Assembly (NCBI GenBank): GCA_965223335.1
Contig: OZ244991.1
Span: 1,641,856-1,705,855, forward strand
Length of the DNA: 64,000 nucleotides
Direction: 5' to 3'
Source of the DNA: Thermodesulfobacteriota bacterium
GTDB taxonomy: Bacteria > Desulfobacterota_D > UBA1144 > Nemesobacterales > UBA2774
Part shown: piece after piece, positions 16,855-29,385 of the stretch
How positions within the stretch are numbered: position 1 is the first letter of the stretch
How the letters are laid out: the number at the start of each line of letters is the position of its first letter
Made by a program: the position numbers and the translations under genes
The notes under the pieces: generated by a model
What the model was told of the DNA's origin: nothing
The model's database searches: none
Seen by the model: the letters and a program-made list of their open reading frames with translations, nothing else

Positions 16855-17337
16855 TTAGGGGTTCGGATTCGGTACAGTTATAGGTGGCTGAGTTGGAGGT
16901 GGCTGTGTAGGTATCGGCCGTGTGGGTGGTGGGCGTCTTGTCGGAGGCACGGGTGGATTAGTCGGTGGTAGAGGTGGGTTTGTAGGCGGTACGGGCGGGT
17001 TGGTGGGAGGATTGGGCGGATTCGTAGGGGGAGGTGCAGTTCGGAAATCATTTTGAGCATCCGGCGGTTCTTGATTGTACGGAGGCTCGGGGTCCGGGAC
17101 TCTTGGGATAGGTGCACGGAGCAGAATTTCCATAACATTTAGCAGATCAGGGTTATCGCGTACCGAATTTATCCTATCAATCGCACCCATATCGAGATCT
17201 ATCTGTTCGTCTGTGGTCCATGAGTTGTTTAAAGCTCCCGCTATCATATGCGGCGATGAAATAAGCAGCACTGCAATTATCATGAATAGCAACGATCTTA
17301 GCGGTTTTAATTTGTTCATTTTATTGAATACTTTCAT
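16855..17337 (-). CDS. Secreted proline-rich repeat protein (P-T-N-P-P-x-P-P tandem repeats)
   Basis: Signal peptide (LLFMIIAVLLISSPHMIAGA). The C-terminal half is almost pure PTNPPxPP/PTQPP repeats. The start is taken at the ATG at 17337; the track's first codon is GTG. The gene directly follows the TPR outer-membrane protein gene, with 1 nt between them. Confidence 0.6.
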   Translation of the reverse strand: MKVFNKMNKLKPLRSLLFMIIAVLLISSPHMIAGALNNSWTTDEQIDLDMGAIDRINSVRDNPDLLNVMEILLRAPIPRVPDPEPPYNQEPPDAQNDFRTAPPPTNPPNPPTNPPVPPTNPPLPPTNPPVPPTRRPPPTRPIPTQPPPTQPPITVPNPNP

Positions 17338-17344
17338 AACCACC

Positions 17345-18658
17345 TCAATAACTCAGGAATAATGACCATGTGATGATGTGACGGTCATATTCTAGCACTC
17401 TGTAAGTTGAGTCCTCGTTTGTAAAACTGTATGACATTGCCGCGTATATCGGTCCCGAGATATTACGTGTCAGCATCGCAAGGAAGTTGATCCTGTCGGT
17501 TTTCCTATCTCTTGGACCCTGGAAATCTGGGTATTTTTCTCTGCCGTACTCACCATTAATATCTGCTCTAATAGCCCAAAACAACGGTGCAGATATTCCG
17601 CCCCTTAACCTGTGGCCGTTAAAATTAAAGTTGAGTCCATCGGCGTTATTGTGCTGGAACTCGTACCCAAGCCACACATTTAGTGCACGCTCCATAAAAA
17701 AGAAGTACTGTAACAAACCAACACTGTTATTTACAGCATCACGTGACGAGATTGCGGGATCAAACCCCTCGTCCTCAAAATCATCATAGGCAAACCTGTA
17801 AAACGGTATTGTTAGGGTGTTGGGTGTGAACGCTGTATTTAGTGATGCGGTAATAGAGTGCGAGTTGCTAAACCTGTCATAATCGAGCAGTGCATAGTTA
17901 AAGTTATAGTTTAGTGTCGGGGAAAACGGTTTGCCGAATAGTGTGGTTGTGTAGTTAATGTATGGTGAAACGTTGAATGTAGATAGATTGAAATCTCTAA
18001 GTTCTCGTTTGGTATGTTGGCTCTGGTAGGTGTTGAAATTGGCACCCAGCACCCAATTCCCTAGGTTAGTGGTTCGTAACCCCAGGTTTAGGTACTCGGT
18101 GAACCTGAATGACTCGTCTTCGGTAAATGCCGCCCCACTGCCGTTTGGGTTTTCCGGCACATTGAAATCGAGTTGGGGTGCAATTTGTAGGAATACGTTA
18201 TAGAATCTGGGGCCACCGGGTCTCTCGAACTCGGTCTGCTGTTGTTCAATGGCCTCGACATACTTTCCTGCCCACTTCGCGTATAGAGATTCCGGGGCTA
18301 GCGTTTTTACCTTGTCAAAAAGCGCACGCGCCATATCGGTCTGGCTGATTTTGAAATATGTAGATGCCTTATAATAGATTATCGGTACGTTTTCGGGGTC
18401 TATCTTAAGCGCTTTATCATAAGTTTCGAGTGCCTTTTGATAGTTTTCCAGCCTGTGATAAGAAAGTCCGATATATCTTAATATTAGAGGGGCCTGGTCA
18501 GGGTATTGCTCAAGTAGAGTTGTGAATTCTGTTATCGCCTTATTATAATCACCGGATTTAAAGGCCTTCCCGGCTTCTGTATCTACTATATTAAGCTCTG
18601 CAAAAGCCGCGGGGGTAATCAGCGAGAGAATGAAAAATGTGTATATGAGTATCCGCAT
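17345..18658 (-). CDS. TPR-repeat outer-membrane beta-barrel protein
   Basis: Signal peptide MRILIYTFFILSLITPAAFA at an internal Met, so the track ORF is trimmed by 50 codons. Next come about 3 TPR motifs, then an aromatic- and Gly-rich region of alternating residues ending in ...WSLFLSY. A terminal aromatic residue is typical of outer-membrane barrels. Confidence 0.6.
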   Translation of the reverse strand: MRILIYTFFILSLITPAAFAELNIVDTEAGKAFKSGDYNKAITEFTTLLEQYPDQAPLILRYIGLSYHRLENYQKALETYDKALKIDPENVPIIYYKASTYFKISQTDMARALFDKVKTLAPESLYAKWAGKYVEAIEQQQTEFERPGGPRFYNVFLQIAPQLDFNVPENPNGSGAAFTEDESFRFTEYLNLGLRTTNLGNWVLGANFNTYQSQHTKRELRDFNLSTFNVSPYINYTTTLFGKPFSPTLNYNFNYALLDYDRFSNSHSITASLNTAFTPNTLTIPFYRFAYDDFEDEGFDPAISSRDAVNNSVGLLQYFFFMERALNVWLGYEFQHNNADGLNFNFNGHRLRGGISAPLFWAIRADINGEYGREKYPDFQGPRDRKTDRINFLAMLTRNISGPIYAAMSYSFTNEDSTYRVLEYDRHIITWSLFLSY

Positions 18659-18896
18659 ATCTTCATTTTTGATGTTACTTCCGAGGATTATATAATTTTT
18701 TGTGTCTGCTTGCAAATGGATATTAGAATTAATATCCTCTCTAATTAAGCAAGCAATATGTAGTATTAAGTTGCTGGAATATGGCTTGCATCGGATTGTT
18801 ATTTGCATAATTATCCGCCTGAGTAATGAGAAGAGGCTGTGTATATTTCCTCCTCAAAACTATTTCAAATAGTTAGTAGTTGTTAAGGGAGTAAAG

Positions 18897-18971: not shown

Positions 18972-19787
18972 CTATGAAAAGGCCTGATTTAATCTCTCAA
19001 TTTGCTCATCGGACAGGTGCCAGCCCGAGCCCCCGCAATTCTCAACAGTGCGCTCAACGCTGTTGGATTTCGGTATGGATACTACATTTGGATGGGAATT
19101 GCACCAGTTTAGAGAGACCTGTGCCATAGTCCTGCCAGTCTCTTTTGCAATGTCCTCAAGCACCTGCATTTTGCTGCTTACCCTGATTCGTGGTTTCTTG
19201 CAAAGCCGCCCGTCATCAAGGGGGGTATACGCGAGGATTGTTATGTTGCTCTTCTCGCAAAATGGTATTAAGTCTGTTTCTATGCCGCGGCTGTTTAGGT
19301 TGTAGAGGACCTGATTTGAGACTATCGGATGGTGGTTAAGATAGTGCATAGCGTTTAATAGTTCGTCTGTGTCGAAATTGCTCACACCCAGATATTTAAC
19401 CAGGCCCCGGTCGGCCAGTTTCTCTAAAGCTCGCATCGTATCCTGCAGAGGGTAGGTGTAATTGGGCCAGTGGATCTGATAGAGATCAATATAATCAGTA
19501 CCTAGTCGATACAAGCTGTCCTCGCATGCTCTCAATACATCATCATGTGCAAGGTGTCTGCCTGAGACCTTCGTTGCTAAAAACACGTCATCACGAATAC
19601 CTTTAATTGCTTCTCCTACCACGTCTTCAGTGTGATAACCCTCGGCAGTGTCTATGAGACTTGCACCCAGTTTTATCCCCTCTCTTAGAGTCTCTGCACC
19701 ACCCCGGTACCTCCATGTGCCGAGCCCGATCTCAGGGATCATAATCCCGGTATTACTTAGTTCTTTATGGTTCATCTCTGTACTCAT
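18972..19787 (-). CDS. Aldo/keto reductase family oxidoreductase
   Basis: AKR fold signatures (GLGTW, IDTAEGY, LGVSNF). Confidence 0.8.
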   Translation of the reverse strand: MSTEMNHKELSNTGIMIPEIGLGTWRYRGGAETLREGIKLGASLIDTAEGYHTEDVVGEAIKGIRDDVFLATKVSGRHLAHDDVLRACEDSLYRLGTDYIDLYQIHWPNYTYPLQDTMRALEKLADRGLVKYLGVSNFDTDELLNAMHYLNHHPIVSNQVLYNLNSRGIETDLIPFCEKSNITILAYTPLDDGRLCKKPRIRVSSKMQVLEDIAKETGRTMAQVSLNWCNSHPNVVSIPKSNSVERTVENCGGSGWHLSDEQIERLNQAFS

Positions 19788-19915: not shown

Positions 19916-21223
19916 TTATGCTTCAATTTCATTTCTCCTCATCAGTCTTCTAGTTAATATCAAAGCAGGAATTAGAAGATAGAGAGGAAAAGCTGTAGAG
20001 GTTGTATTGGTTGCCAGTGAACATCCACCGCCACTTTCGCTTACGGCACCAAATACGTGCTCAACGGCACCCATATCACAGATCGAAAACCCATTACCGT
20101 CCCCGTCCTGCGGCCTTGCGGTGCCTCTTTGGTCGGTCCCGTTACATTCTGCCGGGTTATCGGCGCTATCAATAGCAGGGCTCCCTTCCAGTATCCCGTG
20201 TGTCATAGTGGGGCCGCCGTTATCTGCAAGTATGCCGATCATTGGGTTTGTGTTGGGCATATCAGTCGGGTCTATGAGGTTGCATAAAGTTGTGGAAATA
20301 TTGTTTCCATCCGACTGGATAAATATTCCACCGCAATCACTTGTGATGTTATTGGCAATTATACTACCCCATACTGAAGTCATACTTCCAGCTGCCTGAT
20401 AGATACCTCCGGCTGAACCAGATACGGTTATGTTAGATGCAATCGTTGTAAACTTTATGTCGAGCTCGGAGTCGTTATAAATTCCACCACCTAGGTCGGT
20501 TGCAGCGTTATTGCTTATAGTGACGTTCCTAAGTGTTAGAGCCCCACGGTTGTAAATACCGCCTCCCCTCTCATCACCAGGGTCTCCGGCAGTAATATTG
20601 TTGTCGATCACTGATTCAACAATTGTCCCTTCGGCATCAGGGCCGATATATATGCCTGCGCCTCTGGGAGCCATATTGCCTGTAATTGCTACCGTCTCGA
20701 GTACCACAATTTCAGCTGCATTTCTTATGGCACCACCGGCATTTCCCGAGTTGGCATTCGTGATCGTTAGGTCATAGAACTCAACCGTAATTTGATTTAA
20801 ACCATCACCATCTAAAAGATGGAAGATCTGCTTGGAGCCGTTTCCGTCGATAATCGTGGACTTAGTGCCTGATCCTTGGATAATGAGGTCATCTCTTATA
20901 TCCAGATCACCAACTGCTGCGAAGTTGTCCCCGCCCTCTAGTGTAAGGACATACGTCCCAGCGGGTATTGCTATCGTATCCTGACCCGCAAGATCGTTTG
21001 TTTCCATCACCGCAGCACGAAGTGTGCAGTTCCCGGCCCCGTCGTCACAAAGTGTATCACCCGGTGTATCATCGGGTGTGTCAATGTTGCTGTTTACAAC
21101 AAACATCACAGCATGTGAATGAGTTGCTCCTATCATCACTGATAGAGCAAATACTAAAAGCAACATGCCTCGTGCTATGTGCGAAGCATCAAAATCTTTA
21201 ATGCTCTCGAATAAGTTAATCAT
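19916..21223 (-). CDS. Secreted right-handed beta-helix protein with a choice-of-anchor-Q-like domain and a C-terminal sorting/anchor-like tail
   Basis: Start at MINLFESIK, RBS AAGGAGG. The track's upstream Met would contain the promoter motif. The protein has a signal peptide and a Gly/Asn-rich region of NxTxxxN beta-helix-like repeats. Its C-terminal block (LADNGGPT..GSPAID..C..TDQRG..RPQDGDGNG..CDMGAVE) matches what I recall of the choice-of-anchor Q domain. The tail is GGGC, a hydrophobic helix, then RRLMRR. Confidence 0.6.
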   Translation of the reverse strand: MINLFESIKDFDASHIARGMLLLVFALSVMIGATHSHAVMFVVNSNIDTPDDTPGDTLCDDGAGNCTLRAAVMETNDLAGQDTIAIPAGTYVLTLEGGDNFAAVGDLDIRDDLIIQGSGTKSTIIDGNGSKQIFHLLDGDGLNQITVEFYDLTITNANSGNAGGAIRNAAEIVVLETVAITGNMAPRGAGIYIGPDAEGTIVESVIDNNITAGDPGDERGGGIYNRGALTLRNVTISNNAATDLGGGIYNDSELDIKFTTIASNITVSGSAGGIYQAAGSMTSVWGSIIANNITSDCGGIFIQSDGNNISTTLCNLIDPTDMPNTNPMIGILADNGGPTMTHGILEGSPAIDSADNPAECNGTDQRGTARPQDGDGNGFSICDMGAVEHVFGAVSESGGGCSLATNTTSTAFPLYLLIPALILTRRLMRRNEIEA

Positions 21224-21259: not shown

Positions 21260-21285
21260 GTAACAATATGCGAGGTAAAGGTTCA
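21260..21285 (-). promoter_or_regulatory. ECF-type promoter TTGAACC-N15-GTTACTCAC (gene sense) for the CoA-Q beta-helix gene
   Basis: One of five copies of the same motif with identical spacing. Its -10 lies 36 nt upstream of the ATG. Confidence 0.6.
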
Positions 21286-21379: not shown

Positions 21380-22216
21380 TTATGTTTCAGGTTTGTAAGG
21401 TGGGTTGGTCAACACACATTTTACCTTTGTTGTGGGTTTAACCTTACCGCTGTACTGTTTCGTGTTGCTGGTGCCGTTATAAACACAACTCGCGTTGAAT
21501 CTAACCAAGTCTACAGTAGTCGGCTGAAGTTGTATTGTGGCTTCTTTCTTGTAATCGCCGTTTCCCTTAGTCAGTGCATCTTTACACTGTTTCTCCACAG
21601 TGTTTAAACTCCATGGTTTAATCATAACGTTTTTATTGATGTGATCTTCAGTGTAGTTGCCTGTCGGGAATACAGCCTTAGGACCATTGGCCGTAGAGAT
21701 CTCAAAGTGCTTAATGCTTTGGTTCTCACCACACTGGAGTTTAGCGTTCCACTTTGTCTTCTCTTTTAAGTTTTTAGAAGCAAGTTTCATCACTGTGTAC
21801 TCATGACCGTTATGAGACTCGGATTTGAGTTTCATAGGCACTGTGCCATGAAGACCGTTCATCTGATAGATTGATGCTCCGCCGTGGCTTGGGAACGGGT
21901 TGGATGTATACCCGCTCTGTGAACTCTGATGTTTAGGTTTAACCAAAACAGCTTTCTTGGCCACAGGCTTTGTGGATTTTCTGCTACTCTTGATACGCTT
22001 TGGTGTAGTAGAAGAATCGGAGTTGTCTACGCCGTTGGTTGTGTAACCATAGTGGTCGCAGCAGTTAACCCATTTCCCATCAACCTTACAGAGTGCCAGT
22101 ATATCGTAAGGGCAACTCGCAAAGCTGTTGTTTGTACCCAATCCTAAAAACATAAATACCGCTAATGCTACTACTGAAAATACTTTCATGCTTTCAAATC
22201 TACTTAGATTAATCAT
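21380..22216 (-). CDS. Secreted Cys- and Lys-rich hypothetical protein (278 aa)
   Basis: Start at MINLSRFESMK after an AAGGAGG RBS, followed by a signal peptide. The mature protein has about 10 Cys, many Lys and no recognisable domain. Confidence 0.55.
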   Translation of the reverse strand: MINLSRFESMKVFSVVALAVFMFLGLGTNNSFASCPYDILALCKVDGKWVNCCDHYGYTTNGVDNSDSSTTPKRIKSSRKSTKPVAKKAVLVKPKHQSSQSGYTSNPFPSHGGASIYQMNGLHGTVPMKLKSESHNGHEYTVMKLASKNLKEKTKWNAKLQCGENQSIKHFEISTANGPKAVFPTGNYTEDHINKNVMIKPWSLNTVEKQCKDALTKGNGDYKKEATIQLQPTTVDLVRFNASCVYNGTSNTKQYSGKVKPTTKVKCVLTNPPYKPET

Positions 22217-22252: not shown

Positions 22253-22278
22253 GTAACAACAAAGGCGTAGATGGTTCA
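22253..22278 (-). promoter_or_regulatory. ECF-type promoter TTGAACC-N15-GTTACACAC for the Cys-rich exoprotein gene
   Basis: Second copy of the motif. Its 5' UTR and first codons are nucleotide-level homologous to those of the CoA-Q gene. Confidence 0.6.
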
Positions 22279-22430: not shown

Positions 22431-22991
22431 TCACTTGTTTTTGTTTGCTAATAGTGACTTTCTATTGTCGTTTGAATCACAATCACCCTTAACCTTTACT
22501 CGTAACGCGAATGGCACATTATTTAATTCATTGGATTCGACTACCTCTTGGTTACTGTCTAATTTGATAACTACCTTTTGCTTCCCTGTTTCCAATGCTA
22601 TCGTGTTGTGAGTATTTATAACTTCGTCTGTGTCCAGACCTGAATAAGATTCCACCCTAGACCACGAACCGACGTTTATTCTGTATTCAAAACTATCACT
22701 TGAAGACTCTCCACGATTACTAATTTGTATCTGATAAGGAAAGACACATCTTCCATTAACCGAGTGTATAGCATCTTCTGCTCTCAATTGAATTGAACTT
22801 CCCCACTCACCAACAGTGTCTGCTATTCTAATGGAGTCTGAGCTTGTTATATCTGGCAGTTCGCTATTAATGCTACTTACCTCGTAATATTCCAAATCAT
22901 CAGCGAGTGTTTTACTGCCCATGACTTGTAGAGAGACTATTATTAAGAGAACTGTTAAAAATGTAATGTTTTGAGTGCTTAACCTTTTCAT
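22431..22991 (-). CDS. Small secreted CARDB-like (cell-adhesion-related) domain protein
   Basis: Signal peptide. The C-terminal ...VVESNELNNV... resembles the ESNExNN signature that closes CARDB domains. 186 aa. Confidence 0.45.
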   Translation of the reverse strand: MKRLSTQNITFLTVLLIIVSLQVMGSKTLADDLEYYEVSSINSELPDITSSDSIRIADTVGEWGSSIQLRAEDAIHSVNGRCVFPYQIQISNRGESSSDSFEYRINVGSWSRVESYSGLDTDEVINTHNTIALETGKQKVVIKLDSNQEVVESNELNNVPFALRVKVKGDCDSNDNRKSLLANKNK

Positions 22992-23067: not shown

Positions 23068-23095
23068 GGGGGCTCTATGTAGTCATAGAGCCCCC
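23068..23095 (-). terminator. Strong hairpin immediately after the M6-like metalloprotease gene; putative terminator/insulator
   Basis: Perfect 12-bp stem GGGGGCTCTATG/CATAGAGCCCCC with a 4-nt loop, starting 11 nt after the stop. The trailing sequence is an A-run then a T-run on the coding strand rather than a clean U-tract, so intrinsic termination is uncertain. Confidence 0.4.
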
Positions 23096-23105
23096 TTGAA
23101 AAGAT

Positions 23106-26100
23106 CTAGTTGGTGTTATTTAGTGAGAATGTGGAGTTGGTCAAGAAATCTGTTTTGATCCCAAGCAGGTTATATCCGCTTGGATCACCATTTGACCACA
23201 GCAATAGAGGTTCGCTACCTAGTGGCAGTGGGTCGCCTATGCTTAGCGGGCAAGATAATGTGCCTGCATCAAGCAGATCCATTCCGCCTACTGCTTGACC
23301 GAACAGTGTTTGTTTGAACTCTGCATAGTCGTCCCCTGAATCGTTGCTGATGAAATCATAGATGTGAGCAAAGTCCGGTTGTATAAGTCTAACACCTACT
23401 CTTACGTAGTTGCTCGCATGCTTGTTCAACCATTCATGATTCGGTATGCAGACAGGGTTCTGTAGAGGTTTACAGTCTGGTGCTACAGCGCCGATAGCCG
23501 ATTTGCAGGCATCATTAGGTTCTATTACATGGTACACAGCCAAGCCCGAGTCGTTGATGTTATAGTCGTAGAGAGGTGTGTTGATCGAGTTTTCTTGGAT
23601 TCTGGTCTCGAGCAGCACATATTCCAGCCCGTCATCATACCTGCGTGGGAGTATGTAGACCTTCTCACTCTGCTTCACATCACTCAGATCGTATTTATCA
23701 TTTTCCTCGATGACATGAGGTGTGACCCATCCAAGGTGTAGCTTGTGGAACCCATGAAGGTGAGGTGTTGCAAGGTCCTTACCGGTTTTAAATGTCATAA
23801 GCGATATCATATGAGGTGCAGTGTTCATATATCTGTTCTGACAGGTCTCACCCGGTGCCAGGTCCTCTTCGTCCGGGCAATCACTCATAAAGCTAGGTAG
23901 CGCAGAAAACTGTACTCCGTCATGCAGTCCTTTGTATCTTCCATACGCGTCATCGAGGCCTAGCCAATGGTGTGCAAGTTCGTGTGCGGCAACCATCATA
24001 TTCTGGATCTTGTCCGACTGATCAAGAGGTTCGGCTTTAAATATTAGGTTTAGGTGAACTGTCTCTGTAATCCTCACACCGTCCACACTCAGTGTTTCAT
24101 TATCTTCGTCACAGAAAGGTGCAAAGCTTGTCTTAATTGACGAGCCGGCGTTCCCACTCCTTGGGATGGCAACAATAATTCCCAATTCATCTGGCGTGAT
24201 CATTTCATCTTTATTTCTGTCATAGGATTTGAAGTCAATCATACCTTCGGCAAATTTGAGCGCTTCAGCATGAAGGGCATCAGAGCCTGATCCATAGGTA
24301 GCACCGTTTTCACAGTCAAAGTTCTCACTATCGAGATAATAGTTTTTATCGTTTGTGATTTGACCTGCGTTTGCAGCTGTGAAAATCCCGAGTGTGCCGG
24401 CTTTGTTAACCTGGAACCTGCCGCCTGAGTTGAGCATAAAATAGTCTTTTACACTCTGGAACCCGCCGTGCAGGAAGTCATCAACATCCACAAAGAACAT
24501 GGTGTCTGCAGGTGAATCTTCGATCTGGGGATCGATTATGATGGTGAGGAGCTCGCGGGATCCATATATAGGTTCTATTATGGACTCGTATTTCTTAGAA
24601 GCTCTTCCCATATTAGGTCCTTCTGCCAGGTCCGGGCCTATGCGGAGTTTTTTCTCGACTACCAGGTTAGCATCGTTGATATAGCCAGCAGGTGGAGTTG
24701 TAACACCGGCTTGCGTTACTCGGTATGCAACTCCTACTTCATAACCGCCTGCTTTAGGTGATAGCTCCTTGATACCAAATGTGTAACTGCCGCCGCCAGC
24801 ATGATTTACCTGTGGTTTAGTGTCGCCAGGGTTTTGGAATGTCAGTGTCGGGTAGTGGATGATTACTTCTTGATCCATTAGCGGGAAGCCGTCCAATGTA
24901 GGCACTATGAATATAGTCCCCTCTCCTGCGAATGCTCCGCTTAGTGTTACTGCTATATCCGATACTTCATTCACTTCAACATGTGTCGACAGATTAGCAA
25001 CCGGTGTGGTATGGCTCTCTGTGGAGCTTGTAAGCTCGGTCTGCGATACAACATCAAAAAAGTTGTCTTTGGAATTGTTCTCTTCTGTTTGTACTAACAC
25101 AGTCCATGCAGAAATTGTTCCTTTTGCCACAACATCAGTCTCGCTGCCTCTCCACTCGAACTTTACGTTATGCATTCCCTCTGGGAGGTCTTCTGCATTA
25201 AATACCACGCTTCTTGCCTCGGTATGATAGAGTCTTCCCGCCAATGCAATCTCTTTGGGATAGACCTCTTCGGCACCGTTATCAATTATCGCGCGGAGCA
25301 TAATGAAATCACCCTGCTCCATGCTTATGACGGATGAGAATGTAATAGCGGTTTCCGAGCCTTTAGGTACGTAGAAATTTATGTCGGCATTAGGCACGGG
25401 CGTCCAGTTCTTGGTCCCGATCTTAAGCTGTTCGGGTTCACCGTCGCCAGTGATGCCTTTTCCGGTTTTAACCTTAATCGAAGCGTTTCTGATGTAGGAA
25501 CTGCCGTTTGTTACATGCTCTGTTGAGTACTGTACCTGTACCGTGTGTATGCCTCTGTCTACCTCTGTTAAAAAGGTGAATGATTGACTCGGGGCCACAA
25601 GTACCTGGTCCATCCCGCCAGTAAGTGTGATCGGACCTGGGAGTGCCTCAACACCGTCTACGAGTACCCTTATTTGCAGGGGTTCATCTGTGGTGTCCGA
25701 TACATATGACATTGCCGAGAATGTAATCGCAGCTACGGTGTTATTTTCATTTACTACAAATTTGCTTGCGGCTCTCGGTAGATCTATAAACCCGTCACTG
25801 CCCTTTGGGAGTTTAATGAATTGATCAACCATCACTGGGAATTCCGGTGTGCCGCCGTCAACACATATTGTTTCTTTCTCGCCAGCATACGAGTATTTCT
25901 TGGTTTTACAGCCGATATGAGTTTCCGACCTGATCTGCATGCTGTCAGGTTCATTGCCATCGAACTCATACGGATTAGGTAAGAATCCGCCCGGACCTGG
26001 GCGGTTTACGCTTGATGATTTTTTCTGAGCCTCTGCGCTCACTGAAAACATAAGTACAACTACTAGAAGCACAAGCAACTGTAATATTTGCCTGCTTGTT

Positions 26101-26138
26101 CCTTGTTTGGATTTATTGTTGAGTGTAAGTCTTAACAT
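23106..26138 (-). CDS. Large secreted zinc metalloprotease, M6 (InhA)-like, about 1010 aa
   Basis: Start at ATG 26138, 6 nt after AGGAGG. The track ORF begins at an upstream TTG. Signal peptide present. HELAHHWLGLDDAYG matches the M6-family HExxHxxGxxDxY zinc-site pattern. The protein has long beta-rich N- and C-terminal extensions. Confidence 0.6.
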   Translation of the reverse strand: MLRLTLNNKSKQGTSRQILQLLVLLVVVLMFSVSAEAQKKSSSVNRPGPGGFLPNPYEFDGNEPDSMQIRSETHIGCKTKKYSYAGEKETICVDGGTPEFPVMVDQFIKLPKGSDGFIDLPRAASKFVVNENNTVAAITFSAMSYVSDTTDEPLQIRVLVDGVEALPGPITLTGGMDQVLVAPSQSFTFLTEVDRGIHTVQVQYSTEHVTNGSSYIRNASIKVKTGKGITGDGEPEQLKIGTKNWTPVPNADINFYVPKGSETAITFSSVISMEQGDFIMLRAIIDNGAEEVYPKEIALAGRLYHTEARSVVFNAEDLPEGMHNVKFEWRGSETDVVAKGTISAWTVLVQTEENNSKDNFFDVVSQTELTSSTESHTTPVANLSTHVEVNEVSDIAVTLSGAFAGEGTIFIVPTLDGFPLMDQEVIIHYPTLTFQNPGDTKPQVNHAGGGSYTFGIKELSPKAGGYEVGVAYRVTQAGVTTPPAGYINDANLVVEKKLRIGPDLAEGPNMGRASKKYESIIEPIYGSRELLTIIIDPQIEDSPADTMFFVDVDDFLHGGFQSVKDYFMLNSGGRFQVNKAGTLGIFTAANAGQITNDKNYYLDSENFDCENGATYGSGSDALHAEALKFAEGMIDFKSYDRNKDEMITPDELGIIVAIPRSGNAGSSIKTSFAPFCDEDNETLSVDGVRITETVHLNLIFKAEPLDQSDKIQNMMVAAHELAHHWLGLDDAYGRYKGLHDGVQFSALPSFMSDCPDEEDLAPGETCQNRYMNTAPHMISLMTFKTGKDLATPHLHGFHKLHLGWVTPHVIEENDKYDLSDVKQSEKVYILPRRYDDGLEYVLLETRIQENSINTPLYDYNINDSGLAVYHVIEPNDACKSAIGAVAPDCKPLQNPVCIPNHEWLNKHASNYVRVGVRLIQPDFAHIYDFISNDSGDDYAEFKQTLFGQAVGGMDLLDAGTLSCPLSIGDPLPLGSEPLLLWSNGDPSGYNLLGIKTDFLTNSTFSLNNTN

Positions 26139-26171
26139 TTTATTCCTCCTCAATGTTTGTTTGATAGGTAA

Positions 26172-26197
26172 GTAACACGAGGAGGTAAAATGGTTCA
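26172..26197 (-). promoter_or_regulatory. ECF-type promoter CTGAACC-N15-GTTACTTAC for the M6-like metalloprotease gene
   Basis: Fourth copy of the motif, about 35 nt upstream of the ATG. Confidence 0.6.
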
Positions 26198-26298: not shown

Positions 26299-28023
26299 TC
26301 AGTTGGCTCTGGCTTCTTCGGTGCCTTCATTTAATAAGTTCAATGCACCCAAAGCGTCTATTCTGCCTTTACCGTATTCGTTATCCTTTCCGGGTTTACC
26401 CAAGTCAAGCGCACTTTGCGTAAGGAGGTATTTAACCTCAGTCGAGGTGAGAGCCGGGTTTTGCTGCAGAAGTAGTGCAATAGCACCTGTGACGTGGGCT
26501 GCCGCCATAGAAGTGCCCGAGGTTAGATGCCACTTATTACCTGGTGCAGGGCAGTAGATCTCCACCCCAGGTGCCGAGAGATCTATGTATGATCCTCTGG
26601 TCGATGAACGGTATAGATTATCTTTGGCATCCGTCGCAGTCACAGCTATGACTTCTCCCAAAGCCGCCGGATACACAGTCTTACCATTCTTACCACCATT
26701 ACCCGCAGCGGCTACAACAATGACTCCTTTTTCTACCGCTTTCCTGATCATTTTAGCGATTAGATGATCTTTCGGGCCGCCAAGGCTGAGGTTTATAACC
26801 TGAGCACTGTTTAAGATCGAATAATCAATTGATTTTGCAAGTGAAGTACTGCTGCAAATTGTATTTTTAGCCTCTGTTGAGTCTGACCAGCATGCCCTCA
26901 CGGAAATGATATCAACATCGGGTGATATGCCGAGTGCACCTGTACCGTTGTTAGGAGTAGATGCAATAATCCCGGCGATTGATGTGCCGTGCAGTTCATC
27001 TGTAAAACTCCCGTTGCCTTTGTCCACAAAATCCCTTCTCAGTTTTACCGCATTACTGAGTGCACTGTGATTATAATCTACACCGGTATCAATGACGGCC
27101 ACTCTTACCCCGTTTCCTGTCGAAATTCTGTGAGCCTTATCGGCGTTGATCTTATTCACACCATACTGGATTGAACTGGTTGCGAGCCCTTCGTATAGAT
27201 ACACAGGCTGGGTCGCTAACACACGAGCATCATCAATAAGTGAGGTAATCACAACCGGGACTGTTCTAGAATCCGGGATGTTATATACGACTAGCACAGC
27301 ATTGATGCTGTTTAATCTATAAGCTTCCCTTAGAGTCAGCTCATTTTTACTTCCTATTTCAGTTGCTGTGCTCCGAGCATTCGGGCTGTCTTCTATAAGT
27401 ATCAATACCTGATCGGGTATATAACCGTCCTTTGCTATTCCGGACAAAGTTTCGGGGGTCGGATCCTTAAACACGGGGGCGGTGAGTTGTTCCTGCTCTA
27501 TAACAGGCTCAATCAAAGTTGGGTCGTCCGGCAATTGAGTAGGTGATGTAAACTGGGGATCAGGGACTACGGGATTAATCCCCGAGGTCGGGTCGGGGTC
27601 AGAAGACCCAGGTTGATTACTCGGGGTTTCAGGCTCAGGTACCGGGGGTAGGGGGTTTGTGGGTTGAGTGGTGTCAGGATTCCTGGGAGGCTTCGGGTTG
27701 TCAGGTCTCGGGGGCTTAGGTTCATTCGGAGGAAGCACAATATCTTGGCTCGGAAGATTCGGTATTGTCGGTGGTTTGTTCGGGGGTTGAGGATATGTAG
27801 GCCCCGAATTGCTAGGGTTTCGGTTAGGATTAGGTTTCGGCGGTGTAGGCAGGTCATCACCCACATTAGGACTATAGCTGCTAGGGTATCGTGGTATTGG
27901 CTTTGATGAGTTGGACTGAGCAACCACAATAGCCTCTGCAGTTAAATTCAAGGCGAGCGCATTTGAATAACCGCTCAGAGCTATTAAAAGTGCTGCCGTT
28001 ACAGTTGCTGTGATAGCTCTCAT
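26299..28023 (-). CDS. Secreted S8 subtilisin-like serine protease with a roughly 120-aa proline-rich N-terminal region
   Basis: Signal peptide, catalytic triad motifs VAVIDTGVD (Asp), HGTSIAGII (His) and GTSMAAAHVTG (Ser), and a PxxP-rich low-complexity N-terminal region. It sits 35 nt downstream of the anti-sigma gene with no promoter motif between them. Confidence 0.85.
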   Translation of the reverse strand: MRAITATVTAALLIALSGYSNALALNLTAEAIVVAQSNSSKPIPRYPSSYSPNVGDDLPTPPKPNPNRNPSNSGPTYPQPPNKPPTIPNLPSQDIVLPPNEPKPPRPDNPKPPRNPDTTQPTNPLPPVPEPETPSNQPGSSDPDPTSGINPVVPDPQFTSPTQLPDDPTLIEPVIEQEQLTAPVFKDPTPETLSGIAKDGYIPDQVLILIEDSPNARSTATEIGSKNELTLREAYRLNSINAVLVVYNIPDSRTVPVVITSLIDDARVLATQPVYLYEGLATSSIQYGVNKINADKAHRISTGNGVRVAVIDTGVDYNHSALSNAVKLRRDFVDKGNGSFTDELHGTSIAGIIASTPNNGTGALGISPDVDIISVRACWSDSTEAKNTICSSTSLAKSIDYSILNSAQVINLSLGGPKDHLIAKMIRKAVEKGVIVVAAAGNGGKNGKTVYPAALGEVIAVTATDAKDNLYRSSTRGSYIDLSAPGVEIYCPAPGNKWHLTSGTSMAAAHVTGAIALLLQQNPALTSTEVKYLLTQSALDLGKPGKDNEYGKGRIDALGALNLLNEGTEEARAN

Positions 28024-28058
28024 GTCTCTTCTCCCTCGTTTTATACTATAACCTATAT

Positions 28059-28751
28059 TTAATAGCCCTCAGTGGCTGATTTAATTATTTCGGTATTCGC
28101 ACTAAGTTCTTGAATGGTATCGGCTGCTTGCTCGTCAGGTTCTAGCTCTATTACATATAAACCACCCGCTTTCGGTCCATCCACAATTTTTCCCCTGATT
28201 TCCTCAAGCACCTCTCCTATAGCTTCTATGCTAGCGTCTTCTTGAAACACAACCAACAACTTTGGCCCGGCAGTTTGCACTAGCTCTGTATCTCCGCTTA
28301 AGACCTTGTAATCATTGGTCTCCTCGGGTGTGCCGAAGTAAAGTTTGCCTGCAAGCAGAGCGATCAACCCAAACTGCACAAGCAGTATGGCCATGGCCCC
28401 TGCGGGTATTGCGGTGGGTAATGATATAGCCGGCATCAAGTTTTTTATACTTGACCAAATGGTTTCGGTTTCTTCATCTCTGGCGTAGCTGACATCGGTG
28501 TCTGTTTCTTCGATCCTCTGCATAATGCTTTCTTCCATATTCTCGAACTCGGCAGATATCTCTTTATCCACAAGCTCATTGGTTTCCATAACTGCTTCCC
28601 TTATAACCTCGAGTCCTATGATCTCAGAGCTGCACTCTTCGCATTCGTGGATGTGCTCTGTAACAAGTGCTTTTTCTTCTGTGTCCAATGTACCGTTTAG
28701 GTACCATGGCAAAAGCAGGCTGATCTCTTCATGTGTAGTATTGTTGGTCAT
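28059..28751 (-). CDS. Anti-sigma factor, ZAS-type (zf-HC2, HxxxCxxC), single-pass membrane protein
   Basis: EHIHECEEC motif near the N-terminus, one TM helix (AGAMAILLVQFGLIALLAGKL) and a C-terminal extracytoplasmic domain. Its ATG overlaps the sigma-factor stop (ATGA). Confidence 0.7.
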   Translation of the reverse strand: MTNNTTHEEISLLLPWYLNGTLDTEEKALVTEHIHECEECSSEIIGLEVIREAVMETNELVDKEISAEFENMEESIMQRIEETDTDVSYARDEETETIWSSIKNLMPAISLPTAIPAGAMAILLVQFGLIALLAGKLYFGTPEETNDYKVLSGDTELVQTAGPKLLVVFQEDASIEAIGEVLEEIRGKIVDGPKAGGLYVIELEPDEQAADTIQELSANTEIIKSATEGY

Positions 28752-29338
28752 TGCAGTGTCTCCTCTGTGGTTATTCCCAATCCTGTAAGTTTTTCTTTCA
28801 ATTTTTCTTTTGCGTAATACATTCGGGTCTTCACAGTGTTTACAGGGCAGTCCATTATCTCGGCAATTTCAGGGTATGATAGCCCCTCATAGAATGTAAG
28901 CTCGAGTACCGTCCTGTGTTCGGGGGAAAGTTGTTCCAGAGCTATTTTCATGCGCTCTGCTCTATCTTTTTTCTCCACGATTTCCTCCACGTTATCTTCC
29001 GACGCAGGGATCCGTGAAAACTCCTCGGGGTCCATTGCAGTCGGCGATTTTTTTCTCAGTTCGTTCATTGTTTTGTTGTGTGCTATACCGAAAATCCATG
29101 TAAGCACCTTTGATTTCCCTTTAAAGTTTTTGGCACTGTTCCAGACCTCAAACATTACATCGTTTGTGATCTCTTCGGTCATTTTGTTGTCTTTTGTTGT
29201 CTTATAAACAAACGAAAAGACCTGCCGAACGTATTTTTGATAAAGGGTTTTAAACGCCTCTTTATTGCCGTTTGCGATTTCCTCTATCAGTTCCAAATCC
29301 GAAGGTTCCAAAACCCTCTCCATTATCTCTGGCCTCAC
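28748..29338 (-). CDS. ECF (group 4) sigma-70 family RNA polymerase sigma factor
   Basis: A 196-aa protein with sigma region 2 (FKTLYQKYVRQVFSFVYK..) and region 4 (LEQLSPEHRTVLELTFYEGLSYPEIAEIM). It is translationally coupled to the anti-sigma gene. Confidence 0.85.
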   Translation of the reverse strand: MRPEIMERVLEPSDLELIEEIANGNKEAFKTLYQKYVRQVFSFVYKTTKDNKMTEEITNDVMFEVWNSAKNFKGKSKVLTWIFGIAHNKTMNELRKKSPTAMDPEEFSRIPASEDNVEEIVEKKDRAERMKIALEQLSPEHRTVLELTFYEGLSYPEIAEIMDCPVNTVKTRMYYAKEKLKEKLTGLGITTEETLQ

Positions 29339-29359: not shown

Positions 29360-29385
29360 GTAACACCGAGTACACAGATGGTTCA
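29360..29385 (-). promoter_or_regulatory. Autoregulatory ECF-type promoter TTGAACC-N15-GTTACTAAC upstream of the ECF sigma gene
   Basis: Fifth copy of the motif, 21 nt upstream of the sigma ATG. An extra TTCGAAC half-site lies just upstream of the -35. Confidence 0.6.

Follow-up and report, generated by a model that had tools for sequence, protein, structure and literature searches.

The RseA-DegS-RseP system of Escherichia coli (sigma-E), the MucA-AlgW-MucP system of Pseudomonas aeruginosa (AlgU), and the RsiW-PrsW-RasP system of Bacillus subtilis (sigma-W) are each built from an autoregulated extracytoplasmic function (ECF) sigma factor and a single-pass anti-sigma factor, with its anti-sigma domain at the cytoplasmic N-terminus, encoded by an overlapping gene. 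In these cascades, a periplasmic site-1 cut is followed by a site-2 cut. RsiW of B. subtilis is a zinc-motif anti-sigma factor that is membrane-bound and degraded by regulated proteolysis, and a further protease gene, mucD, is part of the algU operon. The input signal is not known for most ECF sigma systems. Nor is it known, for most membrane anti-sigma factors, which protease makes the site-1 cut or what the ectodomain does. The sequence described here is a 64,000-nucleotide stretch (the window) of contig OZ244991.1 from a Thermodesulfobacteriota bacterium (assembly GCA_965223335.1, positions 1,641,856 to 1,705,855). It contains a three-gene locus encoding an ECF sigma factor, a single-pass anti-sigma factor, and a secreted S8 subtilase, and it appears to share with the systems above both the autoregulated sigma factor and the overlapping anti-sigma gene.

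The three genes form a genuine operon, and the arrangement is found again in many bacterial phyla. The extracytoplasmic end of the anti-sigma factor is a small domain with a predicted fold like that of a subtilase pro-domain, and a secreted protease is encoded next to it wherever this could be evaluated. The reading that is favored here, held with a little less than even confidence, is an autoregulated ECF sigma/anti-sigma/protease module in which the protease would cut the pro-domain-like ectodomain and thereby trigger release of the sigma factor. The protease probably belongs to the switch itself and is not just one of its products.

The minus strand is the coding strand of all three genes, as determined from the open reading frame (ORF) listing and from direct reading of the sequence. 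The sigma stop codon TGA shares bases with the anti-sigma start codon ATG in an ATGA at 28748-28751. The anti-sigma ORF ends with a TAA at 28059-28061 and the subtilase ORF begins with an ATG at 28021-28023, leaving a gap of 35 nucleotides that contains a GAGGGAG ribosome-binding site. A consensus scan of the minus strand of this junction located no sigma-70-like promoter and no terminator-like site, and its RNA folding energy is only -6.0 kcal/mol. In none of the loci compared does the conserved ECF promoter motif described below occur between the anti-sigma gene and the S8 gene, and because of this the subtilase is taken to depend on the sigma promoter. Across the related loci, the protease start lies a median of 3.5 nucleotides from the anti-sigma stop, and about 17 loci have a 4-nucleotide overlap; translational coupling is therefore indicated. 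An earlier note on this DNA had described the ATGA overlap, the 35-nucleotide gap lacking a promoter motif or hairpin, and a single operon. The first two are seen in the sequence, and the third is upheld by the short gaps, the overlaps, and the missing motif. The sigma start used in that note, GTG at 29338, is an upstream in-frame alternative that gives way to ATG at 29323, since the 191-amino-acid product of the latter is identical to the publicly called protein and the relatives are 191-193 amino acids in length.

In a set of 5.8 billion clustered proteins, the window anti-sigma factor has only nine close relatives, at 36-43% identity. All five metagenomic relatives with enough flanking sequence have the genes in the order sigma, anti-sigma, S8. 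The arrangement is far beyond chance; the same order is found in every related locus with enough flank. A scan using one genome per species returned 74 loci with at least the N-terminal anti-sigma pattern, which are a biased sample of relatives because they were recruited with peptide patterns derived from the query. Hidden Markov models of two domains, the C-terminal one of the anti-sigma factor and the catalytic one of the subtilase, were run on all ORFs of the 74 loci, and loci without an S8 gene were examined for other proteases. The C-terminal domain is present in 40 loci, all from species-level genomes. Two of these could not be evaluated, as the contig ends within 800 nucleotides of the anti-sigma stop. 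An adjoining protease gene is present in all 38 others (S8 in 28, C14 in 10). The S8 gene lies directly downstream in 26 loci and directly upstream of the sigma gene, on the same strand, in two; in the remaining ten, a caspase-like Peptidase_C14 gene lies directly downstream (E 1e-27 to 1e-35). The C-terminal domain is absent from 34 loci, and seven of these have an S8 gene nearby.

The carriers belong to the Thermodesulfobacteriota, Dadabacteria, Methylomirabilota, Nitrospirota, Alpha-, Beta-, and Gammaproteobacteria, and include one metagenome-assembled genome (MAG) labeled as Firmicutes. Pseudomonas/Aquipseudomonas, Sedimenticola, and Sphingomonas are among the proteobacterial carriers. A Myxococcota locus with an adjoining S8 gene fell below the domain threshold.

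The C14 partners form two unrelated lineages. The first comprises seven Nitrospirota loci encoding a 759-amino-acid protein with C14 and DUF4384 domains, and the second comprises three proteobacterial MAGs encoding a protein of about 290 amino acids. The Nitrospirota loci, with DUF4384 at the C-terminus, are L019, L021, L024, L025, L033, L037, and L060; the others are L065, L069, and L082. The N-terminus of the partner is a signal peptide or a lipobox wherever it was checked, namely in the window protein, the S8 partners with a complete N-terminus, and representatives of both C14 lineages. S8 has given way to C14 in two lineages and the partner is still a protease bearing a signal peptide, which suggests that proteolytic activity is the conserved requirement. 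In a mirror-tree comparison of 15 loci, ectodomain and subtilase distances correlate with r 0.93, and with a partial r of 0.52 when the sigma factor is controlled for (p ~0.001). The corresponding values for the N-terminal domain are 0.75 and 0.40, but the ectodomain also tracks the sigma factor better, so that the N-terminal measure is probably just the noisier of the two and the comparison does not discriminate.

The anti-sigma factor is of class I, with an N-terminal anti-sigma domain matching zf-HC2 (PF13490; E 1.2e-7, 32.1 bits against a cutoff of 22.2) and a gene that overlaps the sigma gene. It has a single hydrophobic span with a mean Kyte-Doolittle value of 2.25 over 19 residues. Because the sigma-binding N-terminal domain must be cytoplasmic and there is only one span, the last ~90 residues are extracytoplasmic. 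This agrees with the periplasmic C-terminal domain proposed in the earlier note; a topology with the whole protein in the cytoplasm was not borne out.

Besides zf-HC2, the anti-sigma factor has one Pfam match only, to PF22148 (Fervidolysin_NPro-like), a family named for the N-terminal pro-domain of the subtilase fervidolysin. The whole protein scores 21.2 bits and the isolated ectodomain 23.8 bits (E 5.8e-5) against a gathering threshold of 21. This family is matched by six of the ten close homologues (E<=1), and no other family recurs. More distant members match it as well, including P0033, which has two tandem domain copies and scores 45.7 bits. The AlphaFold2 models show a beta-alpha-beta-beta-alpha-beta topology. 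The predicted local distance difference test (pLDDT) score is ~82 over the ectodomain in the full-length model; in a domain-only model made with 84 sequences it is 83.5 overall and ~90 over the fold. In a Foldseek search against the PDB, pro-domains are among the top-ranked matches, and the tightest superpositions are with the pro-domains of subtilisin BPN'/E and Tk-subtilisin, POIA1, and the furin/PC1 pro-domains. These matches have a probability of 0.99-1.00, TM scores of 0.58-0.70, and a root-mean-square deviation (rmsd) of 2.3-2.7 Å over 67-72 of ~71 residues, with E-values of only 0.03-0.15 for the superposing entries 3cnq_P, 1scj_B, 2z58_B, 1spb_P, and 1itp. POIA1 is a free-standing I9 inhibitor that is bound to subtilisin in entry 1v5i. 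A profile search of PDB sequences with the whole anti-sigma factor yielded no relative. As model-based evidence for pro-domain likeness, the fold is supportive and not decisive. A SEA-like or RsgI-like autoproteolytic domain was considered and rejected, RsgI being larger, of a different fold, and cleaved at Asn-Pro; no SEA or RsgI structure is among the top 50 Foldseek matches.

A search of 1.84 billion representatives with the ectodomain profile (E <= 0.001) gave a family of 1599 cluster representatives at 50% identity. Nearly all of the best 150 of the 1599 are 190-260 amino acids long and have the domain at their very end. In 111 of 111 members, only 0-8 residues follow the domain, and its C-terminus is therefore free, like that of a released pro-domain or an I9 inhibitor. 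The only invariant residues over 84 family sequences are a Gly-Pro in the turn between beta2 and beta3. In the C14 lineages, the residue preceding this Gly-Pro is always Asp. Other arrangements of the domain also occur in the family. P0033 carries it as a tandem pair on an anti-sigma factor, P0116 has two copies after a Gly-rich region, P0068 is 809 amino acids long with at least four copies and no anti-sigma domain, and P0017 (~110 amino acids) consists of a transmembrane (TM) helix and the ectodomain only.

The relationship of the ectodomain to the partner pro-domains is distant. When profiles built from 84 ectodomains and from 29 partner pro-domains are compared, they align in register (hhalign E 0.0028, probability 11%), the probability with small profiles is 2.4%, and BLASTP gave no alignment between the ectodomain and the subtilase's own pro-region. 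The BLASTP result and the weak hhalign values rule out a recent duplicate of the partner pro-domain; the two may be distantly related. Since the partner subtilases keep their own pro-domain, the ectodomain is an extra, distant copy of the fold and not the subtilase's missing chaperone.

The subtilase matches Peptidase_S8 (PF00082) with 176.7 bits and has an intact D/H/S triad in the S8 order, in the motifs VIDTG, HGTS, and SGTSMA. It is composed of a signal peptide, a proline-rich stretch of ~160 residues (approximately residues 38-200), a pro-domain (approximately residues 203-285), and the catalytic domain (residues 293-574). A segment with the beta-alpha-beta-beta-alpha-beta pattern precedes the catalytic domain in all partner subtilases with a complete N-terminal region, as in a zymogen. 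Four of six partner pro-domains match PF22148 weakly, with a best E of 0.026. Assignment as a type VII secretion system mycosin was rejected: the TIGR03921 score of 224.5 bits (2e-66) is below the cutoff of 278.75, the protein has no C-terminal TM helix, and ESX genes are absent from its neighborhood. A stretch rich in proline, 100-190 amino acids long, lies between the signal peptide and the pro-domain in the partners of L001-L012, L027, L040, L044, L052, L068, L077, and L081. In L017, L022, L031, and L045, a lipobox cysteine takes its place. Judging from these two layouts, autoprocessing would leave the pro-domain tethered instead of the catalytic domain, an unusual arrangement for an S8 zymogen.

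The sigma factor consists of sigma-2 and sigma-4 domains only (~190 amino acids), as expected of an ECF (group 4) sigma factor. It matches Sigma70_r2 (9.9e-13), r4_2 (7.7e-16), and Sigma70_ECF (3.2e-10), and scores 112.7 bits against TIGR02937, which has a cutoff of 42.9. A putative ECF promoter of the form TGAACC-N13-GYGTTAC, allowing one mismatch or fewer, has five matches in the window against 0.18 expected, and none of 100 shuffles gave five. All five sites are on the minus strand between 21260 and 29385, each about 35-40 nucleotides upstream of a start codon. The genes behind them encode the sigma factor, an M6-like metalloprotease, a CARDB protein, a 278-amino-acid secreted protein, and a choice-of-anchor-Q protein; the subtilase gene is not among them. 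The motif is shaped like an ECF promoter: its -35 element contains AAC, its -10 element contains GTT, and the spacing is fixed. The copy predicted upstream of the sigma gene resembles an ECF-type autoregulatory promoter (AAC-containing -35, CGT/GTT-type -10), and its position implies autoregulation. As a 26-nucleotide sequence, TGAACCTTT...GTTAC-T(A/T)AC, the motif is present upstream of the sigma gene in six of six related loci with upstream flank (L001-L003 and L005-L007). It also precedes many neighboring genes in the related loci and never the S8 gene.

The favored mechanism would proceed as follows. In the resting state, the single-pass anti-sigma factor would hold the sigma factor at the inner membrane. 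The subtilase, made from the same transcript, would be exported as a zymogen with its own pro-domain, and activation of this zymogen would be the gated step. The mature subtilase would then recognize the ectodomain as it does its own pro-domain and clip or degrade it, which would constitute the site-1 step. The ectodomain is a plausible target for docking and cleavage because a mature subtilase has its own pro-domain as its first physiological substrate. The truncated anti-sigma factor would pass to the site-2 protease RseP and to cytoplasmic proteases, and the sigma factor would be freed. Free sigma factor would act at the TGAACC-N13-GYGTTAC promoters of its own operon, giving positive feedback, and of the neighboring secreted-protein regulon. 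The earlier note had raised the idea that the protease may act on the ectodomain, and this idea is strengthened by the pro-domain likeness and by the invariably adjoining gene for a secreted protease.

Several observations weigh against this mechanism. The PF22148 scores per domain copy are near the gathering threshold. The Foldseek matches have weak E-values (0.01-0.15), and further folds of the ferredoxin-like type (RRM, ACT, EF-1 beta) rank in between the pro-domains, at worse rmsd. The profile-profile likeness to the partner pro-domains is weak as well (probability 2-11%). The C14 partners are not known to use I9-type pro-domains, so pro-domain likeness cannot explain recognition in those loci. 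The window contains no M50-like (site-2 protease) gene. Feedback through a protease made alongside its own substrate needs an extra gated step, for which zymogen activation is proposed. Lastly, conserved neighbors of ECF sigma genes can be, and often are, targets and not regulators (PMC7826278).

This last point also favors an explanation in which the subtilase is output only. It would be the first gene of the regulon, a secreted protease for nutrient acquisition or surface remodeling, while the ectodomain would sense an unrelated signal and a general DegS- or Prc-type protease would make the site-1 cut. The predicted regulon does consist of secreted hydrolases and surface proteins, similarity between 70-residue ferredoxin-like folds can be convergent, and the E-values are weak. 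However, the protease is the sole invariant neighbor, in all 38 loci and at least seven phyla, whereas the other regulon genes vary and L003 has the core only. The linkage survives both the change of protease class and a changed gene order (L013 and L018, where the S8 gene stays linked), and the protease is often translationally coupled to the anti-sigma factor. A purely downstream role would also make the assignment of the sensor to a pro-domain-like family a coincidence. This explanation is the strongest of the alternatives and is nonetheless unlikely.

A second alternative is that the ectodomain binds the mature subtilase in the manner of an I9 domain and holds it inactive at the inner membrane. 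The bound protease would shield the anti-sigma factor from general periplasmic proteases; when the protease leaves, by export or for a substrate, the anti-sigma factor would be degraded and the sigma factor freed. The outcome would be homeostatic control of protease supply with no positive feedback. Free-standing I9 domains of the POIA1 type are tight subtilase inhibitors and are among the closest-superposing structures, the ectodomain has a free C-terminus, and translational coupling would fit two proteins that bind in a fixed ratio. TonB-dependent transducers offer a precedent for a partner that protects an anti-sigma factor from being proteolyzed (PMC11637429). On the other hand, 10 of the 38 loci pair the domain with a C14 protease, for which docking of an I9 type at the active site is not known. 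With only the Gly-Pro turn invariant, the 84 sequences show no evident conserved active-site tail, and the last strand of the model reaches the C-terminus with little tail beyond it. Cleavage of the ectodomain by its partner is ranked above this inhibitory tether because C14 replaces S8 in two lineages, and the tether is considered decidedly doubtful.

The HxxxCxxC motif named in the earlier note is present in the anti-sigma factor as H33-x3-C37-x2-C40, within the zf-HC2 match. H7, placed as in ChrR, is a plausible fourth zinc ligand. The earlier description of a redox- or thiol-sensing zinc-binding anti-sigma factor does not hold up: the motif is replaced in 3 of the 10 close homologues and absent from 56 of 111 family members that keep the TM helix, ectodomain, and protease partner, the protein has a membrane anchor and a conserved ectodomain, the window protein has no cysteine N-terminal to the motif, and the score against the RsrA model TIGR03988 is 16.1 bits against a cutoff of 62.5, so that redox sensing is unlikely and release of the sigma factor by thiol oxidation as in RsrA, with the subtilase incidental, is highly improbable. 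Where the zinc site is present, its residue pattern is most economically read as structural. The arrangement had also been called uncommon on the grounds that such anti-sigma factors usually lack a TM helix. Anti-sigma factors with one TM helix are the norm, occurring in 82 ECF groups against 10 groups with soluble ones (PMC7826278). The unusual traits of this anti-sigma factor are its pro-domain-like sensor domain and its obligate protease partner, rather than the TM helix.

Table 1. Features of the sigma/anti-sigma/subtilase operon and its predicted regulon, with positions in the window (aa, amino acids).
Feature	Position	Strand	Basis
ECF sigma factor, 191 aa	28748-29323	-	Sigma70_r2, r4_2, Sigma70_ECF; TIGR02937
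Single-pass anti-sigma factor, 230 aa	28059-28751	-	zf-HC2; alignment of 10 homologues; one hydrophobic span
Cytoplasmic anti-sigma domain, aa 8-40, with H33xxxC37xxC40	28632-28730	-	zf-HC2 match
TM helix, ~aa 114-137	28341-28412	-	Hydropathy; model helix 117-138
Extracytoplasmic C-terminal domain, aa 161-230, I9-like fold (predicted)	28062-28271	-	PF22148, AlphaFold2, Foldseek, hhalign
Junction between anti-sigma and subtilase genes, 35 nucleotides	28024-28058	-	Ribosome-binding site present; promoter motif and stable hairpin absent
Secreted S8 subtilase zymogen, 574 aa	26299-28023	-	Peptidase_S8 E 8e-52
Promoter motif P1 (TGAACCATCTGTGTACTCGGTGTTAC), upstream of sigma	29360-29385	-	Window motif scan; 6 related loci
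Promoter motif P2, upstream of M6-like metalloprotease	26172-26197	-	Motif scan and related loci
Secreted M6-like (HELAH) metalloprotease, 1010 aa, predicted regulon member	23106-26138	-	TIGR03296 E 5e-22, below cutoff
13-bp hairpin after M6-like gene, probable transcript end	23068-23095	-	-25.5 kcal/mol
Promoter motif P3	23025-23050	-	Motif scan and related loci
Secreted CARDB-domain protein, 186 aa, predicted regulon member	22431-22991	-	CARDB E 4.5e-6
Promoter motif P4 (1 mismatch)	22253-22278	-	Motif scan
Secreted protein, no family match, 278 aa, predicted regulon member	21380-22216	-	Motif and library scans
Promoter motif P5 (1 mismatch)	21260-21285	-	Motif scan
Choice-of-anchor-Q protein, GlyGly-CTERM-like tail, 435 aa, predicted regulon member	19916-21223	-	NF041518 E 4.9e-20

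The positions of the operon, the motif copies, and the predicted regulon are listed in Table 1. The metalloprotease, unlike the subtilase, has its own copy of the motif (P2). Its start in the ORF list, TTG at 26153, falls within the ribosome-binding site, and ATG at 26138 is the likely start. An M6-like gene follows the S8 gene in L001, L002, and L004 as well, and a partial ORF occupies the same place in L007. The 435-amino-acid choice-of-anchor-Q protein also has weak CSLREA and rhombotarget-A matches. Its tail, SGGGCSLATN...LLIPALILTRRLMRR, looks like a GlyGly-CTERM sorting signal, which, if real, would imply a rhombosortase in the genome and a surface-anchored member of the sigma regulon.

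Locus L003 (on an ERZ25072999 contig), the most divergent of the close relatives, keeps the three-gene core alone. It has about 10 copies of the motif, on both strands and before different genes; the HemolysinCabind genes downstream of its core have no motif match. As the motif-bearing genes of L003 differ while the core is kept, the regulon has turned over around the sigma/anti-sigma/S8 core. Beyond the regulon genes of the window, the minus-strand stretches 16855-18808 and 18972-19787 include genes for a 487-amino-acid TPR protein and a 162-amino-acid proline-rich protein, with an aldo/keto reductase gene separating these two from the regulon. The TPR gene has no preceding motif. A TPR protein likewise closes the cluster in L001 and L002.

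The literature search, which did not extend to the supplementary group catalogue of the ECF classification, returned no description of an anti-sigma factor with a pro-domain-like sensor or with an obligate S8 or C14 partner. A sigma group with a protease neighbor may already stand in that catalogue. The broader proposal, made tentatively and with slightly less assurance than cleavage of the ectodomain by its partner, is that anti-sigma factors of this kind have, in their pro-domain-like ectodomain, a ready-made pseudo-substrate or place of docking for a zymogen protease translated along with them, whose maturation would be the signal. This would be a phylum-spanning family with a logic similar to that of the eukaryotic site-1 and site-2 proteases (S1P/S2P), and the protease class would have been swapped at least twice. 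The module suggests at once what the signal may be, which enzyme may make the site-1 cut, and what the ectodomain may do. The known function of the ectodomain fold is subtilase binding, and the genes next to the operon, preceded by a clear motif, make up the predicted regulon. The family includes cultivable Pseudomonas/Aquipseudomonas and Sedimenticola strains, which makes the hypothesis genetically testable. If true, it would establish a class of sensor domain that is new among anti-sigma factors and a bacterial counterpart of S1P/S2P logic, and it would give synthetic biology a protease-gated switch, complete in itself, for possible reuse as an orthogonal part. It would also offer a handle on the control of secreted proteases in Thermodesulfobacteriota- and Dadabacteria-like bacteria and in Nitrospirota.

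Compared with the RseA, MucA, and RsiW systems, the module would by analogy be expected to follow the same order of site-1 and site-2 cuts, and RsiW shares HxxxCxxC with the window anti-sigma factor. The site-1 proteases of those systems (S1 family, PrsW) are not obligate operon partners and their ectodomains are not pro-domain-like, whereas an S8 or C14 gene, a candidate for the site-1 role, adjoins the anti-sigma gene of the module in 38 of 38 loci. The ectodomain resembles the subtilisin BPN'/E pro-peptide, POIA1, yeast PBI2, and plant SPI-1 in being a beta-alpha-beta-beta-alpha-beta domain of ~70 residues with a free C-terminus. It differs from I9 inhibitors in being joined by a TM helix to an anti-sigma domain, in its marginal sequence similarity, and in having C14 partners in some loci.

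In the eukaryotic SREBP/ATF6 pathway, a membrane-tethered transcription regulator is freed by two cuts, made on the luminal side by S1P/SKI-1, a subtilase, and then within the membrane by S2P; the proposed mechanism would have a similar order, with the first cut on the periplasmic side. S1P is a zymogen gated through its own pro-domains (PMC11231238). The likeness is one of analogy only; here the substrate ectodomain would itself resemble a pro-domain, and one transcript encodes both the protease and its substrate. In the SpoIVB/CtpB-SpoIVFA-SpoIVFB-pro-sigma-K system of B. subtilis, a dedicated secreted serine protease crosses a membrane compartment and triggers an S2P-family protease, which activates a sigma factor. 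That system differs in the sigma class, protease family (S55/S41), and targets, and it has no pro-domain mimic. PepSY is a domain derived from the M4 pro-peptide that is found in non-protease envelope proteins and is proposed to be a local protease regulator. It differs from the ectodomain in fold family and protease class and has no sigma/anti-sigma context.

Proteases are also found in the neighborhood of ECF54 of the Actinobacteria, where subtilase, carboxypeptidase, and CHAT (caspase-like) genes are conserved (PMC8999054). An anti-sigma factor is lacking in ECF54, and degradation of the sigma factor itself is the role proposed for the proteases there (PMC8999054); the module has a canonical anti-sigma factor and secreted proteases. 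The periplasmic domain of RsgI is an alpha/beta/alpha sandwich of seven helices and five strands that self-cleaves at Asn-Pro (PMC10328401). The ectodomain of the module is ~70 residues long, has an invariant Gly-Pro turn, and has no Asn/Asp-Pro requirement. RsgI and the proposed module would be alike in that the site-1 step is built into the system and not left to a general stress protease.

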